A stretch of 64,000 nucleotides of DNA from Halobacteriovoraceae bacterium (GTDB taxonomy: Bacteria; Bdellovibrionota; Bacteriovoracia; Bacteriovoracales; Bacteriovoracaceae): contig CAVRCF010000002.1 in NCBI GenBank assembly GCA_963719505.1, positions 373,323 through 437,322 of the forward strand. Reading direction: 5' to 3'. Position 1 is the first letter of the stretch. Each line of letters begins with the position of its first letter. The notes beneath the pieces were generated by a model, which saw nothing but the letters and a program-made list of their open reading frames with translations, had not been told where the DNA came from and searched no databases. The position numbers were made by a program, and so were the translations under genes. Of this stretch, positions 8,493 to 25,319 are shown piece by piece.

Positions 8493-8554
8493 AAGACTAT
8501 TCTATCTTTTAGGCGGAGAATTTACTCTTTCGTTGAAGAAGTTTCAATGGGGTG

Positions 8555-9863
8555 TATAAAGATTCGACAATTATGTCCTATCCTTATTTCCCAGCGAAAA
8601 TGTCCTACTTAACGCATTAATATTACAATACTCAGGTAATCAAACCTGAGGTGTTAAATGGGAAAAATAAGCATGGATGCTAAACAAATGAAGCTTTATA
8701 GACTCGCCTGTGAAGTCTTAGCCGGAAAAATTTCTATTAAAGAATTTTCCATCATATCTAAAAAGTCATATCGCCAGTCTCAACGTATTATTAAGAATGT
8801 TGAGACTCATGACTTCATAGGAGTCATACATAAAAATTCTGGTGTTGCTCCAGTAAATAAAACTTCTGAAAGACTAGAAGCTTTGATCGTAGATCTTCTA
8901 ACTTATAAGTATGTTGGATTTAATCTCACTCACTTTAACGAAATGTTAATTAAAAATGAAAACATTAAAATTTCAAAGTCTTCACTTCATCGAATTGCAA
9001 CTAAACACAATCTTGTAAAAGCTCCAAGAAGAGCGAAGAGAAGATCTTTCAAGCCTAGAGCCAGAGTCCCTCAAGAAGGTATGCTCGTGCAGTTCGATGG
9101 AAGCCATCACCCTTGGTTTGGTAATCACAAATCGGACTTAATTGCAGCAATCGACGATGCAACCGGAAAGATTTTAGCAGCAGAGTTTTTTTACGGAGAG
9201 AAGTCGATGCATTCGATGAAAGTTATCAAGGAAGTAATTGATAAAAATGGAATTCCAGAAGCCTTCTACATGGATCAAGCAGGGATTTATGGAAAGGTAG
9301 ATCGAGACTGGGAATCTCAGATCTCAAGAGCCTTTGATCAGGTTAATATTAACTTAATTCTTGCAAGCTCTCCACAAGCTAAAGGACGAGTAGAGCGTCT
9401 CTTTAGGACTCTACAAGATCGACTGGTAGCGGAGCTTTCGTTTTATAAAATAGAAACTTTGGAAGAGGCAAATGACTATTTGAGAACAACTTTTATAGAA
9501 GCTTTTAATAAGCAGTTCTCGGTAGAGTCGCAAAGCTTCGATACAGCTTACAGGAAAAATGTTTTTGGAAATTTAGACAGAGTTTTTTGTAAAAAAGAGA
9601 GAAGAAAAATTGGAGTTGGAAACGTATTTTCTTTCGAAGCAATTACTTGGTTGATAGACGAAAAGTTTTGCTATCGAGGTCGCGAAGTGAATATAAATAC
9701 CCATCTTGATGGCAGTCAGAGCTTTGATATTATGGGTAAAGAAATATATCCAATAGTGTTCAACACAAAGAGGATTTATGACTATAAAAAGCGAGCAATA
9801 TGACACACAAGGTAGGACATAATCGCTGGGATATTAACCGGACATAGTCGCTGGGATTCAACA
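8555..9863 (+). mobile_element. IS1202-family (ISNCY) insertion sequence, 1309 bp, 17-bp target duplication
   Basis: GAAGTTTCAATGGGGTG at 8538-8554 and 9864-9880. Each end carries two inverted ..ATGTCC repeats; right end ...CAACA. The left boundary could be 2 bp earlier (TGT). Confidence 0.85.
8658..9803 (+). CDS. ISNCY/IS1202-family DDE transposase
   Basis: N-terminal HTH; LVQFDGS.H.W, IDDATG, YMD and SPQAKGRVERLFRTLQDRL integrase-core motifs. Confidence 0.9.
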   Translation: MGKISMDAKQMKLYRLACEVLAGKISIKEFSIISKKSYRQSQRIIKNVETHDFIGVIHKNSGVAPVNKTSERLEALIVDLLTYKYVGFNLTHFNEMLIKNENIKISKSSLHRIATKHNLVKAPRRAKRRSFKPRARVPQEGMLVQFDGSHHPWFGNHKSDLIAAIDDATGKILAAEFFYGEKSMHSMKVIKEVIDKNGIPEAFYMDQAGIYGKVDRDWESQISRAFDQVNINLILASSPQAKGRVERLFRTLQDRLVAELSFYKIETLEEANDYLRTTFIEAFNKQFSVESQSFDTAYRKNVFGNLDRVFCKKERRKIGVGNVFSFEAITWLIDEKFCYRGREVNINTHLDGSQSFDIMGKEIYPIVFNTKRIYDYKKRAI

Positions 9864-9878
9864 GAAGTTTCAATGGGG

Positions 9879-9895
9879 TGTCTATTTTTTAGACA
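9879..9895. promoter_or_regulatory. Palindrome TGTCTA-TTTTT-TAGACA (IS target motif)
   Basis: Perfect 6-bp inverted repeat with 5-bp spacer, overlapping the end of the target duplication. Confidence 0.55.
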
Positions 9896-19568: not shown

Positions 19569-20516
19569 TTATTGATTTTGTACTGAGATATAGTCAAATA
19601 GGTTGCTATCATCGATATTGATTTCAGAAAATTTTGTTGATCCATAACTTGTTACTAAAGCTCCAATATTATTAGCTTCTGTTTCAGTATGTCTCATTAA
19701 AAGTTTTGTGGCTTTTCTATCATTAGCTATCTTGATACCAACTCCCGCAGATAGTATAGTTGATCTTTTTATAATCACTTCTTCAGCGTCATAAACATGG
19801 ATTCCTTCAGCTGCATTTCCAAGAGTTGAATCTACTATTCTAACCAGTTTTGTATCGTAGATAAAAACCTGTGTTCCATCAATCTGTGCATTAGAAAGAT
19901 CCATATCTTTAATGACAACTTTCTCAGTGGCCTTAAGGTTAAAACCATTCGCAGATCCATCAAAGATGCTATTGTGTTTTTCAAGAATTCTAATCTTTTT
20001 TGCAGAAAGGCTTAGAGCCACTTGTTTTGAATATGAAAAATCTGAATTGATAAATCTTGGAGAATAATCACAGCTTGGGGCATTGACTCGCGCACCATAA
20101 GTATTATGACTGAGATCACTATTTGAAACTCTTAATCTGTCACAAGATTGATCATCTTCAGAATAAAAATCAACTCCCATATACATATCAGTAGCGATAA
20201 CTTTGTTGAGAATCAATTTCTTTACATTATAACCCTCAACCGCTTTGGCCGTTTCGCTTCCTTCTATCTTTACATTTCTTATTCTAATCGTGTCACCTTC
20301 AGCATAGATACCAACTGTCGTGTTTGGAGTGATAATTCTGTGACCATTTCCTTGTAAAATAGCTTCACCTCTCAAAGAGAGTGCTGAGTACCCTGAGTGA
20401 GCTGAACAATCTAGATCTTCAGTCATCTTTACTTCAGTTGTAATAGTGTCTCCGCAGTTAAGTGCGAATGCTGATAGTGAAATTAAATTAAGTGCCGTGA
20501 TAGTAAGTAGTTTCAT
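19569..20516 (-). CDS. Secreted right-handed parallel beta-helix protein
   Basis: Signal peptide, CGDTIT..V..TEDLDC start, repeated G(I/V).(V/I)...N/D beta-helix turns. Confidence 0.7.
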   Translation of the reverse strand: MKLLTITALNLISLSAFALNCGDTITTEVKMTEDLDCSAHSGYSALSLRGEAILQGNGHRIITPNTTVGIYAEGDTIRIRNVKIEGSETAKAVEGYNVKKLILNKVIATDMYMGVDFYSEDDQSCDRLRVSNSDLSHNTYGARVNAPSCDYSPRFINSDFSYSKQVALSLSAKKIRILEKHNSIFDGSANGFNLKATEKVVIKDMDLSNAQIDGTQVFIYDTKLVRIVDSTLGNAAEGIHVYDAEEVIIKRSTILSAGVGIKIANDRKATKLLMRHTETEANNIGALVTSYGSTKFSEINIDDSNLFDYISVQNQ

Positions 20517-20677
20517 TTTTTCCCCTCTCTCAAAAGTTAAATTAAATGTCTTTGTTTCTTTAAGAGCTGCAAGGAGAGGGCCAAAAAGGAAGGTGGCTAA
20601 TTAGTTGAATATTCTTTTATGAAGGAAGAGAAACTGTAAATTTTTTAGGAGCTGTATAGAAACTAGACGATTATGTC

Positions 20678-22427
20678 GTAACTGCTCAATAAAGTGTTCT
20701 TCAAATCTTTAAAAATATTTATTTTGAACTAATCATCAGAAATTGTTTGGCCATCCATCTCTTTTTTGTAAATATATCTCCATGGCATTTGATGAATTAA
20801 AAAACATGGCAATGGGATGGGTAAATACTTGGAATAAAGGCAAACTCAAAAGAAAGTTAAAAGAGACTGCTCAGCGTGCTGTAGACCTTACTATAGAAAA
20901 TTCAGAGTTGGAAAAAAAGAATAGTGAACTCATAGATGAAGTTCGTCGTCTCAAAGGTGAAAAAGAAAAACCTAAAATAAAGCCAACAAATACTAGTGAC
21001 CTAAATCCACCTCCGAAGAAAGAACATAAGAAAAAGTCTAAAAAGAAAGATATCGAAGTTGATGAAGAGATTGAAATTTCTCCAGATAAAAATGAACTCC
21101 CTAAAGACGCTAAATTCATCGGTTCTAGAGATGTTGTGGTCCAAGAAATAGTATTTAATCGCAGAAATATAAAATTCTCTATTAAGAGATATTACTCTGA
21201 AAGTCTTAGTAGAGTTATCGAAGGTGAGATACCTTCAGGTTTCAAGGGCCATCAGTTTGGTCCTAAACTTCGGGCCCACATTCTTTATTTGAATTACAAA
21301 TTAAGAGTTCCCCACGAAAAGATTAGAGAAATGCTCTCTGAGCTAAAAATTGATATTAGTGCTGGAACTATAAATTCAATTCTAAATAACCTGACTGATG
21401 ACTTTCAGGTTGATCTGGAATCCGCAAGACATGCAGGACTAAAAAGAGATTCGAAAGTTCATATCGATGATACTGGGGCGAAAGTTAATGGAGTAAAAGC
21501 TTACACATTTGGAGTAAGCCATAAGTACTTTACTAGCTTCACTACGAGTTTTGAAAAGAATCGTTGGGCATCGGTGGGAGCACTCTTTGGAGGTGAGCAA
21601 AGGTTTATTTTCGATAGAGCTGCAATTGATTTTATTGGTAAGAAACTAAAACGTCCCAAGGTTACAGTATTTTTTAACCTTCTAGAAAAGAAGATAAGTT
21701 TTAGTCGAGAAGAATTAGAGGTCTTTTTTGAAGATTCGACTTTCTCAGATGTAACTAAAAAACAAAAAGATATCGTTAGAACTGCTGGTGCACTTAGTTA
21801 TGCGAACTCTAGAGCGAATGGACCACCAATAAGATTTTTAATCTCAGATGAAGGGACAAATTTTAATGGGCTTCATAGGAACCATCAGCTTTGTTGGGTG
21901 CATGAGATTCGTAAATATAAGCTATGTGAGGTTTTCAAAAGAATAGAGAGTGAAACCCTTGAGAAATTGGTTCGTCAGTGGAGAGCTTTTTATAAGCTCA
22001 TGAAGAGGTACAGGAATAATCCTGACACCGTTAAGAGAATACAGATTCGATCAGAATTTGAGAGGATCACGTCTTTAAAAACATTAGTTAAACCACTGGA
22101 TGCACAGCTTGGAAGAACAAGAAAGAATAGAGATAAACTTTTACTATTTTTGAAATACCCACAACTTCCTCTGGATAATAACCTTTGCGAAAGAGACCTT
22201 CGAGAACGAGTGATAAAAAGAAAAATCTCACTTCAAAACCGCTCATTGAAAGGAATGAAGTCTTGGGACTTGATGCTTTCACTGGCCTCAACTTGTAGAA
22301 AAATAAATTTGAGTTTTTGGCGATATTTAGAAGATCGAATCTCCCAACGAGAAGAAATTCCATACCTGGGCAAGCTAGTTCAAGCTATTTAAATCCTATA
22401 AATTTAAACACAATATTGAGCAGTTAC
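20678..22427 (+). mobile_element. IS66-family element, single-ORF (ISBst12-like), 1750 bp
   Basis: Perfect 14-bp terminal inverted repeats GTAACTGCTCAATA; 8-bp target duplication ATTATGTC (20670-20677 and 22428-22435). Confidence 0.9.
20782..22392 (+). CDS. IS66-family transposase
   Basis: Coiled-coil N-terminus, FGP.LRA, HIDDTG, LISD, HQLCWVH and DNNLCERDLR..V.KRKIS. Start codon uncertain. Confidence 0.9.
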   Translation: MAFDELKNMAMGWVNTWNKGKLKRKLKETAQRAVDLTIENSELEKKNSELIDEVRRLKGEKEKPKIKPTNTSDLNPPPKKEHKKKSKKKDIEVDEEIEISPDKNELPKDAKFIGSRDVVVQEIVFNRRNIKFSIKRYYSESLSRVIEGEIPSGFKGHQFGPKLRAHILYLNYKLRVPHEKIREMLSELKIDISAGTINSILNNLTDDFQVDLESARHAGLKRDSKVHIDDTGAKVNGVKAYTFGVSHKYFTSFTTSFEKNRWASVGALFGGEQRFIFDRAAIDFIGKKLKRPKVTVFFNLLEKKISFSREELEVFFEDSTFSDVTKKQKDIVRTAGALSYANSRANGPPIRFLISDEGTNFNGLHRNHQLCWVHEIRKYKLCEVFKRIESETLEKLVRQWRAFYKLMKRYRNNPDTVKRIQIRSEFERITSLKTLVKPLDAQLGRTRKNRDKLLLFLKYPQLPLDNNLCERDLRERVIKRKISLQNRSLKGMKSWDLMLSLASTCRKINLSFWRYLEDRISQREEIPYLGKLVQAI

Positions 22428-22515
22428 ATTATGTCCTATCCTTATTTCTCAGCGATTATGTCCTATTCAATAATATTTATGTACCCTGATTCCAATCAGT
22501 TATTAGGGGAATTGA

Positions 22516-23679
22516 ATGGGAAAAGTCACTATGTCACAAAAAGAATTGAAGCAGTATCGCCTGGCCATGGATGTTATTGAAGGTAAGTTAACTATAATTT
22601 CCTTCTCTGAACAGATTGGAAAATCGTATCGACAATCTCAGAGAATTATCAATAAAGTTAAGGCCAAGGGTTCGATTGGTGTCTTACATGGAAACATTAA
22701 TCGAACTCCTCACAATAAAACTCCATTCGAAGTTGAAGAAAAAATAGTCTCTCTTCTAAAAAATCAATATCGAAACTTTAATCTAACTCATTTTCGAGAA
22801 AAGATAGAAGAGTATGAGGAAATTAAAATCAAAAAAGATGCACTTCACTCAATTGCTAGGAAACATTGCCTTGTAAAACATCCTAAACGAAGAGGAAGAC
22901 GGTGCCATAAACCAAGAGCAAGACTTCCAAAAGAAGGGATGATGATTCAGTTTGATGGAAGTGATCATACTTGGTTCGGTGATGAAAGAACTGATTTGAT
23001 TGGAGGAATTGATGATGCTACCGGGATTGTTGTTGGTGCTGAATTTTTCTATGGAGAGACGTCAAATAACTCTCTGAAGGTGATTAGGGAGATCGTTGAT
23101 AACTATGGATTGCCAGAAAGTTTCTATATGGACCAAGCAGGTATTTATGGTAAGAAAGAGCGCGAGTGGGAATCACAAATTTCGAGAGCATTTGATCAAA
23201 CAGGAATTCAATTAATCTTAGCAGGTTCTTCTCAAGCAAAGGGAAGAATAGAGAGACTCTGGAGAACATTCCAAGACAGACTGGTAGCGGAGTTAGAATT
23301 TAATCACATAACAAATATTGAAGAAGCCAATTATTACTTAAAAGAGATTTTTATTCCTGCATACAATTTTCAATTCTCAGTCAAAGCCGAAGAAGAAGAA
23401 GAAAAAGCCTGGAGAAAAAATGTTTTTGGAGACCTAGATATTATATTTTGTAAAAAGATTAGGCGAAAAATTATGGTTGGAAATGTATTTAGTTGGGAGA
23501 ATGTGACTTGGGTGTTGGATGAAAAAAGGTGTTTCTATGGACGAGAAATCAATATAAATATTCACCTTGATGGAAGCTACAGCTTCGATGTGATGGGCAG
23601 AAAAGTTCAATGTAAAGTTAGTAATAGGAAAAGATTAAGTGACTATGGTGATAAGTCGAAACACAGAAAAAGCGCTTAA
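22516..23679 (+). CDS. ISNCY/IS1202-family DDE transposase
   Basis: QFDGS.H.W, IDDATG, FYMDQAG and SQAKGRIERLWRTFQDRL; a diverged homolog of 8658-9803. Confidence 0.9.
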   Translation: MGKVTMSQKELKQYRLAMDVIEGKLTIISFSEQIGKSYRQSQRIINKVKAKGSIGVLHGNINRTPHNKTPFEVEEKIVSLLKNQYRNFNLTHFREKIEEYEEIKIKKDALHSIARKHCLVKHPKRRGRRCHKPRARLPKEGMMIQFDGSDHTWFGDERTDLIGGIDDATGIVVGAEFFYGETSNNSLKVIREIVDNYGLPESFYMDQAGIYGKKEREWESQISRAFDQTGIQLILAGSSQAKGRIERLWRTFQDRLVAELEFNHITNIEEANYYLKEIFIPAYNFQFSVKAEEEEEKAWRKNVFGDLDIIFCKKIRRKIMVGNVFSWENVTWVLDEKRCFYGREININIHLDGSYSFDVMGRKVQCKVSNRKRLSDYGDKSKHRKSA

Positions 23680-23751
23680 AGTCTGATAGGACATAATCGC
23701 TCAGAAATTAACCGGACATAATTGCCCAGAAACAACAAATTTTTTAGGAGC

Positions 23752-23768
23752 TGTCTAAAGTTTAGACG
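23752..23768. promoter_or_regulatory. Palindrome TGTCTA-AAGTT-TAGACG (IS target motif)
   Basis: Same motif and same position relative to the target duplication as 9879-9895. Confidence 0.55.
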
Positions 23769-24600
23769 ATTCTAAGCAGTTGGGATCTATATCATCTCTT
23801 TTTTCAAAGCCGCTTTTATCTTTCTTTAATTGGTGAGAGTTTTCCCAGCTAAGACAGCTTATAGCTTTAGAGCGATCTGTATCAGATGGGCCTAAATTTC
23901 TAGGGACATCTTGGGTTTTAAAGAGGCATGTTTCAAAAATCATCGAGGCAATCTTAGTTGTCTTTGAGGTTTTACCAGCATGAGTGCCATGTGAGATTAA
24001 GTTTTCACTGTATCGACTTCCTGTGGGCATATCGGAAAAGTGAATAATCGGTTTAATGATCTCAGGTGAAAAGAAAAGGTATTCATCATTATCATCGATT
24101 TCAGTAAACAAAAGGGAAATTGTTTCATCTCGCTTAACCTTATATAAACCATGACGATCATTTTGTTCGCTGTATGATGCGTAAATTGGATCGTCATCGA
24201 AAGAATCAATAACAAGATCTTCATGCCTGAAATTTATTTTTTTACCAAAAAAATCTCTACGAGTTCCCGATTTACGAATGGTCTCCGGTTCATCGTCTTT
24301 TTGATTTTTTTCATAGATACAGCCTTTTATGTACTGAACGACTGCATACTTCTTTATCACATCTTTGGATGTCACTTCGTACTTTCCTTCAAGGAAGGTT
24401 GTCGCGTAATGAATGGGAGTTGATGAGATGGTGGTATCTGTTTCAAAATCTTTAAAGATTGTTATGGAGAAGCTCTTTAAATCACATGAGTTCGTGACTG
24501 AGCAGTCTTTATTAATAAATGACTTCGTTTCTTGCTCCATCGCTCCAGCAGAAAAAAGGGCGAGAAAGCTTAAAAAGATCAGTATAAAGTAATTTGTCAT
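23755..24600 (-). CDS. Secreted hypothetical protein
   Basis: Signal peptide and several Cys; no recognised family. Confidence 0.6.
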   Translation of the reverse strand: MTNYFILIFLSFLALFSAGAMEQETKSFINKDCSVTNSCDLKSFSITIFKDFETDTTISSTPIHYATTFLEGKYEVTSKDVIKKYAVVQYIKGCIYEKNQKDDEPETIRKSGTRRDFFGKKINFRHEDLVIDSFDDDPIYASYSEQNDRHGLYKVKRDETISLLFTEIDDNDEYLFFSPEIIKPIIHFSDMPTGSRYSENLISHGTHAGKTSKTTKIASMIFETCLFKTQDVPRNLGPSDTDRSKAISCLSWENSHQLKKDKSGFEKRDDIDPNCLESSKL

Positions 24601-24650: not shown

Positions 24651-24683
24651 TCAGCCACTGTCAAATATTTAGACAGTGGCTGA
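24651..24683 (-). terminator. 12-bp hairpin, terminator-like, enclosing TGTCAA-ATATT-TAGACA
   Basis: TCAGCCACTGTC/GACAGTGGCTGA immediately after the stop at 24690. Confidence 0.6.
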
Positions 24684-24689
24684 GGGCTT

Positions 24690-25118
24690 TTATCTTAAAT
24701 AATCAAAAGAGAATCCACCTATATAGTCTATTCCTGATAGGTTTTGCTCTAAAGAATCAGCCAGCGGAAGATGCCCAGATCTTTTATAAACATCTCCATA
24801 AAATTTAATTTGGTTTGTGCCTTTTAGATAAGTCCCTTTTATGATGATGGTCGATTTAAAAGATTGGAAACTTGTATTAAAGGCAGCGATAAAAATCGTT
24901 TGTCCGTTTTGGTTAAAAGATTTGAATTTTTTCGTTCTCCACTCAAAGTTTGTTCCTGATAGGACAACTTCACCCTGTCCTCTTGAAGGCACATCGAGGA
25001 TAACCTGTCTTGTTGTCAGTTCCCCAGAAGGGAGTTTATAGTAAATCTCACCATCGACAGGTGCTGCAAATGAGTTCAGTGAAAAAGCGTAAGCAAAAAG
25101 TAGAATTAATGTTTTCAT
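24690..25118 (-). CDS. Secreted hypothetical protein
   Basis: Start placed at ATG 25118 (AAGGAG RBS), giving signal peptide MKTLILLFAYAFSLNSFA. Confidence 0.65.
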   Translation of the reverse strand: MKTLILLFAYAFSLNSFAAPVDGEIYYKLPSGELTTRQVILDVPSRGQGEVVLSGTNFEWRTKKFKSFNQNGQTIFIAAFNTSFQSFKSTIIIKGTYLKGTNQIKFYGDVYKRSGHLPLADSLEQNLSGIDYIGGFSFDYLR

Positions 25119-25319
25119 AATGGTCTCCTTGATAAGTTGGTTTAATAATGGAATGGGCATCACAAGTTTTCTATATAAAATTTCTTTGTTGACTAGATGT
25201 CTATTGGCGAGGTGCCCAAAAATCTGAAATTTAGCCATAAACAGCTTAAATGTGTACAGATCTACACTTTTAAAGGGATAATTTTTGATAGAATCTGGAA
25301 AATTATTAAAGGGGTAAGT

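Follow-up and report, generated by a model that had tools for sequence, protein, structure and literature searches.

We analyzed a 64,000-nucleotide (nt) stretch of the genome of a predatory marine Halobacteriovoraceae bacterium (contig CAVRCF010000002.1, positions 373,323 to 437,322 of the forward strand), called the window below and numbered from its first base. It carries two related insertion sequences (IS), designated IS-A and IS-B, each adjoining a 17-bp host palindrome close to TGTCTA-N5-TAGACA. The clade to which they belong inserts in a fixed register and a fixed orientation relative to this palindrome, the left tip of its members copies the target, and the copy is itself used as a target by further insertions.

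IS-A (8555-9863, plus strand) is 1309 bp long and has five copies in the genome. It is an ISTde1-like element of the IS1202 family, flanked by identical 17-bp direct repeats (8538-8554, GAAGTTTCAATGGGGTG, and 9864-9880), the first of which ends with the TG that forms the host part of the junction motif. This motif, TG + TATA-AAGAT-TCGACA, occupies 8553-8569 on the plus strand and joins the host TG to the left tip of the element, 8555-8569. The transposase gene (8658-9803, plus strand) encodes 381 amino acids (aa), and its ATG lies 88 nt past the left tip. Two inner left-end repeats, ATTATGTCC at 8570-8578 and AAAATGTCC at 8597-8605 (plus strand), are mirrored at the right end, are kept in relatives and are presumed to be transposase binding sites. 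The right tip (9849-9863), which reads TGTTGAATCCCAGCG on the minus strand, is a canonical TGT end without the palindrome motif. The target landmark of IS-A, the intact host palindrome TGTCTATTTTTTAGACA at 9879-9895, has no mismatch and is among the seven exact sites of the genome.

IS-B belongs to the same family and spans 20655-23737, including a nested element of the IS66 family. Its first 23 bases (20655-20677, plus strand) are separated from the remainder (22428-23737, plus strand) by this 1750-bp element (20678-22427, plus strand; ends GTAACTGCTCAATA; Pfam PF03050, E = 3.2e-26), which is inserted directly behind the left tip. IS66 family elements have GTAA ends and generate an 8-bp duplication. 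Here the duplication, ATTATGTC, is found at 20670-20677 and 22428-22435, its second copy making up the first 8 bases of the IS-B remainder; the nested element has nine full copies in the genome, all nine with 8-bp duplications. Owing to the IS66-family insertion, the right end that the preliminary description of the locus assigns to the second element is 3.1 kb away, at 23737. Intact IS-B measures 1325 bp and has eight genome copies; its transposase gene (22516-23679) encodes 387 aa. The 16-bp direct repeat AATTTTTTAGGAGCTG at 20639-20654 recurs at 23738-23753, the left junction motif, TG + TATA-GAAAC-TAGACG, is at 20653-20669 (plus strand; left tip 20655-20669), and the host palindrome that served as landmark, TGTCTAAAGTTTAGACG at 23752-23768, has one mismatch and a matrix score (see below) of 21.2.

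Both transposases pass the NCBIfam model NF033594 ("ISNCY family transposase") with 302.8 bits for IS-A and 313.1 bits for IS-B at a cutoff of 250, and a Pfam search with the two proteins gave no match. Judging from repeat length and size, we take this model to correspond to the IS1202 group. The two elements are 66% identical at the DNA level. Each end contains two inner repeats of the ATGTCC type, the first at position 19, and left and right ends differ only in their outer 15-18 bases. The inner left ends (8570-8608 and 22436-22474) are almost identical over about 45 bp despite the 66% overall identity, which points to strong constraint or to exchange between IS-A and IS-B.

The letters and coordinates given in the preliminary description for the two left junctions are correct. 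The bases at 8553-8569 (TGTATAAAGATTCGACA) and at 20653-20669 (TGTATAGAAACTAGACG) each depart from TGTCTA-N5-TAGACA at two arm positions, and the spacer changes from AAGAT in IS-A to GAAAC in IS-B while the arms are kept. Counting matches in the window gave a weak signal, with seven at no more than two mismatches for 2.65 expected, and 4 of 100 shuffles reaching seven. We then used a scoring matrix trained on nine target sites, all from other genomes. The IS-A junction scored 16.4, within the best 28 of 3,694,062 genome positions, and the IS-B junction scored 13.4, within the best 70 of the same positions (IS copies included in both ranks). The right tips, TGTTGAATCCCAGCG and TGTTGTTTCTGGGCA, scored -16 and -19 and lack the motif, as the description had noted.

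The TG that precedes the left tip comes from the host. Two IS-B copies (C4:173859 and C4:103646) have AG and CG, respectively, ahead of TATAG, and the same two bases close their right direct repeats. This rules out that TG is part of the element, which would have had a canonical TGT end and a 14-bp repeat. The converse, an origin of the 15-bp tip by duplication of target sequence, is ruled out because all copies have one tip irrespective of site.

Among the 13 copies in the genome (five of IS-A and eight of IS-B), 11 are flanked by direct repeats of 15-17 bp and two are not. TGTCTA-N5-TAGACA with at most two arm mismatches, found at 213 of 3,694,062 positions genome wide, starts 14-15 nt past the right end in 11 of the 13: all five IS-A copies and six of the eight of IS-B, one IS-B site being a remnant of an IS-A left end. 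The orientation is constant, with the right end toward the palindrome, and four of the seven exact palindromes of the genome are occupied by an IS. Contigs assembled from sequencing runs, which contained neither joints nor circle junctions, provided two further right flanks in which the palindrome follows at 14 nt, together with a left flank that has CG before TATA. Two IS-B copies, at C1:698290-699614 and C1:1060370-1061694, have no direct repeats. One of them adjoins a 32-bp remnant of an IS-A left end whose other 1.28 kb is missing, implying a loss through IS-mediated deletion or recombination.

As the direct repeat takes in the first two bases of the palindrome, the cut falling 2 bp inside it, the palindrome remains whole. 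From the sequences of the flanks, insertion lets the original site survive, and the left junction adds a degenerate second copy. The earlier proposal that insertion duplicates rather than destroys the site thus holds for the outcome, with the original intact, but the added copy is degenerate and not exact. We searched for empty sites with both window right flanks, at the DNA level, in three genomes of the same genus and found no orthologous region; the pre-insertion state is therefore deduced from the direct repeats only.

The palindrome has a 17-bp consensus, TGTCTAAA-N-TTTAGACA, and the conserved block is limited to these 17 bp, with unconserved flanks. Exact sites number seven in the genome, with 0.42 expected, and none was found with spacers of 0-4 or 6-11. 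At a matrix score of at least 18 there are 18 sites, versus 0-2 in controls with shifted spacers, rearranged halves or Markov-3 genomes, and at a score of at least 16 there are 33. Exact palindromes are present in 214 of 238 genomes of the order, at up to 17 per genome, the reversed pattern occurring 0-2 times. The top sites are intergenic in 30 of 34 cases, using a crude call of open reading frames (ORFs) of at least 100 aa, and 32 of 33 sites are upstream of at least one gene, the last lying between convergent genes. By this distribution, the palindrome is a host motif and not a product of chance. Its identification as a Xer site or a repetitive extragenic palindromic (REP) element was ruled out by anatomy and copy number, and a literature search on the motif itself returned nothing relevant.

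One might suppose that the host palindromes are relics of the IS family, that is, solo left ends, and that the likeness is due to descent. A few sites do read TGTATA..., as the left junctions do (C1:708048 and C5:835843). Nevertheless, this account is already close to refuted, and we regard it as extremely improbable. Exact palindromes occur in those 214 genomes, reaching 15 per genome in genus g4, in which no relative of the IS-B transposase was detected at E <= 1e-30 (0 of 29 draft genomes, with that query only). The location of 32 of 33 sites upstream of genes and their association with sigma-54-type promoters do not fit relics either, and the host sites are better palindromes than any left junction.

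We defined a sigma-54-type promoter as TGGCAC-N5-TTGCW with at least 9 of 11 positions matched, GG and G fixed, within 130 nt. Such a promoter is found 25-113 nt from the site and reading away from it at 11 of the 33 sites, where about one was expected. In three other genomes (G001, G003 and G004), it accompanies 7 of 20 exact sites (0.4 expected). Sigma-54 activator domains gave 14 matches in the genome, 10 of them at 83 bits or more. Since the sites are upstream of genes and about one-third precede a sigma-54-type promoter, the palindrome is probably the upstream activator site of one sigma-54 enhancer-binding protein. Such activator sites are inverted repeats of TGT-N(10-11)-ACA form, situated some 70-150 bp upstream of a GG-N10-GC promoter, and those of NifA-type activators read TGT-N10-ACA. 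The distance from the host site to the downstream ORF start has a mode of about 90 nt (9 of 27 at 88-100 nt; 7 of 29 at 84-100 nt). No preferred distance was found for -10-like hexamers, and a sigma-70 promoter spaced at a constant distance from the palindrome was therefore discarded. The downstream genes code for trypsin-, subtilase- and Clp-type proteases, a PLD enzyme, a beta-helix protein, an outer membrane barrel and many proteins without a family. Pfam scans of 20 and 27 downstream genes for a regulator located beside its own sites revealed no DNA-binding protein. A TTTACA/TGTAAA hexamer, which may be a third half-site or a promoter element, often (uncounted) stands 6-14 nt from the palindrome, as in ctgtaaattttttaggagc before 23752.

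The window also holds a free host site, TGTCAAATATTTAGACA at 24659-24675, located 58 nt upstream of the gene at 23755-24600 (minus strand). It is embedded in a perfect inverted repeat at 24652-24682 (cagccac...gtggctg), between the stop of the gene at 24690-25238 (minus strand) and the start of the gene at 23755-24600.

We gathered 6 loci from species genomes, 29 from genomes of the same order and 80 from metagenome contigs, and a quick IQ-TREE tree was built from 100 transposases. One clade of 51 rows (SH-aLRT 98) contains all the asymmetric left tips and all the palindrome targets. Its 6-row sister and every deeper row have symmetric TGT... ends. Clean 16-bp repeats without the palindrome flank symmetric-end elements at L038, L040, L120, L124/126, L146, L143, L048 and L159, and the right flanks of symmetric-end elements have 5 arm mismatches at best. 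Read from the tree, the left-tip trait and the palindrome targeting have a single evolutionary origin and did not arise many times.

Left tips in the clade follow the pattern T[A/C]TA-N5-T.GAC. Tips were counted over the rows of the clade and five partial loci added by judgment (L042, L044, L047, L140 and L147). In the 23 distinct left tips, T1, T3, A4, T10 and C14 are invariant, and A13 is present in 18 and G12 in 15. At position 2, A and C are each found in 10 tips, G in two and T in one, and the spacer varies at all five positions. Among the 18 distinct right tips, all have G2 and G13 and 16 have T4; the 35 targets have A4 in 35, T10 in 34, A13 in 34 and C14 in 35. Ten left tips start with TCTA, identical to the start of the target. 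In one pair, the left tip TCTAGTTTCTAGACG and the right tip TGTTGTTTCTGGGCG differ only at positions 2, 4, 11 and 13. The alignment across the family thus has conserved arms and a free spacer, and related elements do keep the motif at the left end, whose loss had been named beforehand as the finding that would speak against mimicry. As for targets, 27 of 29 distinct right flanks in the clade carry the palindrome with at most three arm mismatches at +14/15; this count excludes duplicates, loci whose right end was not detected and flanks of less than 33 nt.

It may be asked whether these tips have any function, or whether they are an inherited end residue modified by short-patch conversion involving the left junction and the palindrome located 1.3 kb from it, favored by the identical 16-bp repeats. 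T10, C14 and R15 are indeed common to ordinary ends, some right-hand sites have an IS-like TATAG directly after the repeat (the genome's own copy C5:220078 and L047), and in L104 position 2 of the tip is C and that of the site is A. Tips also do get replaced. Two copies of one IS, in L110 (tip at 333-347) and in L035 (tip at 1394-1408), share 99.4% identity over 1319 bp and differ only in the tip, where 6 of 15 bases differ by hand comparison and the adjoining printed IS sequence is identical (TCTAGAAACTATACG versus TATAAACTTTAGACG), indicating replacement and not point mutation. Within this genome, however, all intact copies share one tip despite differing sites (4 of 4 for IS-A and 7 of 7 uninterrupted left ends for IS-B). 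A4 is found in 23 of 23 distinct left tips and 2 of 18 right tips, the trait arose once and together with palindrome targeting, and the junction was used six times as a target (see below). We therefore judge a lack of function to be very unlikely.

Some tips of the clade have cores that are reverse complements of each other, TATAGAAACTAGA with TCTAGTTTCTATA and likewise TATAGTTTCTAGA with TCTAGAAACTATA. These pairs look as if the 13-bp core could flip; reasoning on paper, a flipped tip would arise from a nested insertion on the inner side of the left junction. Exchange between coresident elements could explain both the replacement of tips and the shared 45-bp inner left end.

Six independent events show the left junction serving as a landing site; the incoming element is IS1202-like in two of them and IS66-like in four. 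In the first, the right end of an IS-B copy is 16 nt from the reversed 32-bp IS-A left-end remnant, in exact register. The second, from another genome, shows a related IS in the same arrangement (L027, the same as L032). The third is the IS66-type element of the window, whose 8-bp duplication directly abuts the left tip of IS-B, and the fourth is its equivalent at IS-A copy C2:179994. A 59%-identical IS66-type element in L163 and an IS66-type element in metagenome contig L091 account for the last two. The left junction is thus accepted by other elements in the register of the host site, so the mimicry works for targeting. At the level of sequence, mimicry of the host site by the left end is supported by arm conservation, by co-occurrence of tip and target in one clade and by reuse of the junction in register. 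At L027/L032, about 100 nt on both sides of the IS form a nested structure with a reversed left tip on each side and the string TATACAGTTATGAAACGACAG repeated; the 15-bp left tip of this IS copy itself is missing.

The IS66-type elements use host sites as well. Five of the nine genome copies have the motif (at most two mismatches) exactly 8 bp from an end. Of the remaining four, one carries it with four mismatches, another adjoins a different palindrome of 16 bp (TGT...ACA), and the last two show no such sequence. The IS66-type elements in L167 and L086 give the same picture. The IS66-family element of the window (20678-22427) has a single ORF and targets the same palindrome as the IS1202-type elements. 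Comparing the IS1202-type with the IS66-type transposase showed no similarity (best E = 0.42), which rules out a DNA-binding domain common to both. Recognition of a hairpin or cruciform was discarded as well. The host sites fold as single strands with -5.3 and -3.2 kcal/mol and the junctions with 0 (IS-A) and -0.5 (the other), no better than shuffles. As the junctions do not fold and are targeted all the same, it is the duplex sequence that is read and not a hairpin.

On these sequence grounds, we favor with moderate confidence a model in which the left tip copies the target and a host DNA-binding protein places the transposase at the left end of its own element as well as at the target. The right end faces the palindrome across the 16-17 bp duplication, which ends in the TG of the palindrome. 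Under the standard DDE mechanism, the 3'-OH of the left end would be released by a bottom-strand cut between the host G and the T of the IS, and the same 3'-OH would attack the bottom strand of the target between G2 and T3 of the palindrome, the right end attacking 16 bp away on the other strand. The bond that is cut and the one that is attacked would coincide in motif, position and strand, so that one recognition agent could position the catalytic domain in both reactions. This agent would most likely be a host DNA-binding protein because the motif is a conserved host site, because an unrelated IS66-type transposase uses it at a fixed distance of its own, and because the IS1202-type transposase handles a right tip unlike the motif, the special bases of the left tip being dispensable for end recognition as such. 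Such a factor may also bridge the IS end to the target, as the preliminary description proposed. As a side effect, insertion would leave an operator-like copy at the position of the original site.

A strong rival to a host protein is the transposase itself. Its DNA-binding part might read T[C/A]TA-N5-TAGAC at both the left end and the target, the palindrome serving as a surrogate left end, and the preference of the IS66-type elements would then be independent. The tip is at the cleavage site, where the transposase must sit anyway, the cleaved and attacked bonds would be equivalent, and the specificity tracks a transposase clade of single origin. On the other hand, the same transposase acts on a right tip unlike the motif, so tip positions 2-13 are not needed for end recognition as such, and an unrelated transposase shares the landmark at its own fixed distance in five of nine copies and in other genomes. 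The motif is also conserved as a host feature, so that a host protein probably occupies the site. No extra domain is apparent from protein length, with 381-387 aa in the clade versus 387-408 aa for the open frames of the sisters. Recognition by the transposase alone therefore appears rather unlikely to us.

Mimicry has a cost, as it draws insertions that break the left end, and some benefit must therefore keep it. This benefit might lie in regulation. IS-B entered the promoter region of a gene for a beta-helix protein (19569-20516, minus strand; Pfam PF13229). A sigma-54-type promoter, TGGCCCTCTCCTTGCA at 20568-20583 on the minus strand, matches 10 of 11 consensus positions, is directed toward this gene and, by its sequence, would be its promoter. 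It is 69 nt from the left junction of IS-B. Before insertion, the palindrome now at 23752-23768 would have stood at the position of the junction, 20653-20669, centered about 100 nt upstream of the likely start. Reconstructed in this way, the insertion shifted the real site 3.1 kb from the promoter and put a copy with two mismatches in its place. The operator-like copy left where the original stood may keep the neighboring promoter served. This arrangement recurs at IS-B copy C1:1060370, where the promoter is 70 nt away from the junction. Alongside IS-A in the window, no promoter match was found.

The left tip could thus be a working host operator that resupplies a cut-off promoter or puts the transposase gene under a host regulator, targeting being a by-product. 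Such a role is compatible with positioning by a host protein and may coexist with that reading or with recognition by the transposase alone. In addition to the two cases in which an IS-B copy lies between the site position and a promoter 69-70 nt away, the left tip precedes the transposase ATG by 88 nt in both elements, near the modal host-site distance of about 90 nt. Several facts make us doubt it, however. In copies C3:119788 and C1:9957, the promoter is on the far side of the site, and there is nothing to restore. Inspection by eye of the stretch from left tip to transposase gene revealed no sigma-54 promoter in either element, sister elements without the mimic have a similar distance from the end to the ATG, and the IS66-type insertions that the mimic attracts disrupt the left end, at a real cost. 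On balance, we consider a regulatory or compensating purpose unlikely.

A more specific version of the host-protein model would identify the protein. By analogy, a sigma-54 enhancer-binding protein bound to its activator site might serve as a landing marker for two unrelated transposases; the copy at the left end would recruit it and later keep the cut-off promoter active, and the AAA+ activator would be used as Tn7 uses TnsC or Mu uses MuB. We offer this version only tentatively, as an unlikely one.

A number of observations weigh against positioning by a host protein or limit its reach. Which host factor is involved is guessed from context: two-thirds of the sites have no sigma-54-type promoter at the threshold of at least 9 of 11 positions, and the lack of such a promoter ahead of either transposase gene counts here as well. 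Recognition of the palindrome could have evolved separately in the IS66-type transposase. The palindrome is not obligatory, since IS-B copy C4:173859 has a clean 15-bp repeat and no motif; copy C1:1060370, with neither repeat nor motif, is probably rearranged. Among the 29 right flanks of the clade, the misses are L099, with 5 arm mismatches, and L105/L106, with clean repeats and no motif. Some left tips, such as TATAAATTCTGGTCG, have 4 arm mismatches and belong to elements present on several contigs. Finally, T10, C14 and R15 are also conserved in the ordinary ends of the sister clades, and part of the "right arm" was therefore inherited and is not mimicry.

For IS1202-family elements, target choice is so far known, in the parts of the literature covered here, only for the short-repeat subgroup that uses Xer sites. 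The ISAba32 subgroup, the closest known case, inserts beside XerC/XerD recombination sites (Siguier et al., preprint 10.1101/2022.12.17.520857; Harmer and Hall, PMC10132070). As far as these two sources were covered, they report no target for the long-repeat subgroups, only the 5-bp subgroup targeting Xer sites, and the passages concerned neither give a mechanism nor mention an end that copies the target. The likeness to ISAba32, as presented in these passages, lies in the family, the single orientation and the fixed distance from a short host protein-binding site, with one copy of the direct repeat in between. However, ISAba32 has a 5-6 bp repeat, and its left end faces the XerC arm of a 28-bp Xer site, going by the same passages, whereas the elements described here have a 16-17 bp repeat and their right end faces a 17-bp palindrome upstream of genes. 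Repeat length, the end involved and the 17-bp block led us to discard Xer-site targeting of the ISAba32 type.

The elements also resemble ISTde1. They share a 16-17 bp repeat, a similar size (1309 and 1325 bp with 381 and 387 aa, compared with 1327 bp and 394 aa in the portion of PMC10132070 covered here) and a second conserved end region around position 20. Their repeats of 15-17 bp in 11 of 13 copies fall within the 15-18 bp of the ISTde1 subgroup. Both ends of ISTde1-type elements begin with TGT, according to the part of the preprint covered (10.1101/2022.12.17.520857), which mentions left ends of the T(a/g)T type for the IS1202 subgroup alone. In the present elements, by contrast, the right end begins with TGTTG and the left end with TAT or TCT, not TGT, the preceding TG being host DNA. 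In our literature search, which had the supplementary flank tables of these papers outside its scope, we found no report of palindrome targeting or end mimicry in the ISTde1 subgroup. The long-repeat clade described here has a sharply defined target, which one of its own ends copies. That the copy attracts further insertions is part of a test already run by nature.

Insertion next to sequences resembling their own ends is known for IS30 and IS911, for which the target is another IS end or a chance look-alike. The present case differs in that the resemblance is to a conserved host regulatory motif, concerns one end only and involves a target shared with an unrelated IS. The findings bear on the use of host transcription activators as landing markers by mobile elements and on the possibility that an element limits its own damage by replacing a displaced regulatory site. 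They also uncover a conserved, probably sigma-54-linked regulatory motif in predatory bacteria, ahead of proteases, a lipase-type enzyme and many unknown proteins.

The landing of several unrelated IS families at one host palindrome has a parallel in REP-targeting insertion sequences, as described in the parts covered of Tobes and Pareja (PMC1525189) and of the ISPpu9 paper (PMC12288879). REPs are high-copy hairpin repeats, with more than 100 copies per genome and a stable hairpin. Unlike REPs and bacterial interspersed mosaic elements (BIMEs), the present motif has 7 exact and about 30 good copies, is located upstream of genes and has a non-hairpin junction that is accepted as a target. A further parallel is Tn7, which is directed to attTn7 via TnsD and TnsC, in one orientation and at a fixed distance from the DNA-bound selector. 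A TnsB-type transposase is attributed to this family in a statement based on modelling (PMC10132070, in the part covered). In contrast to Tn7, the elements described here encode no selector or AAA+ partner, so that the selector, if any, would be a host protein. They offer a workable setting in which to study how Tn7/Mu-type transposases locate a site when they have no selector of their own.

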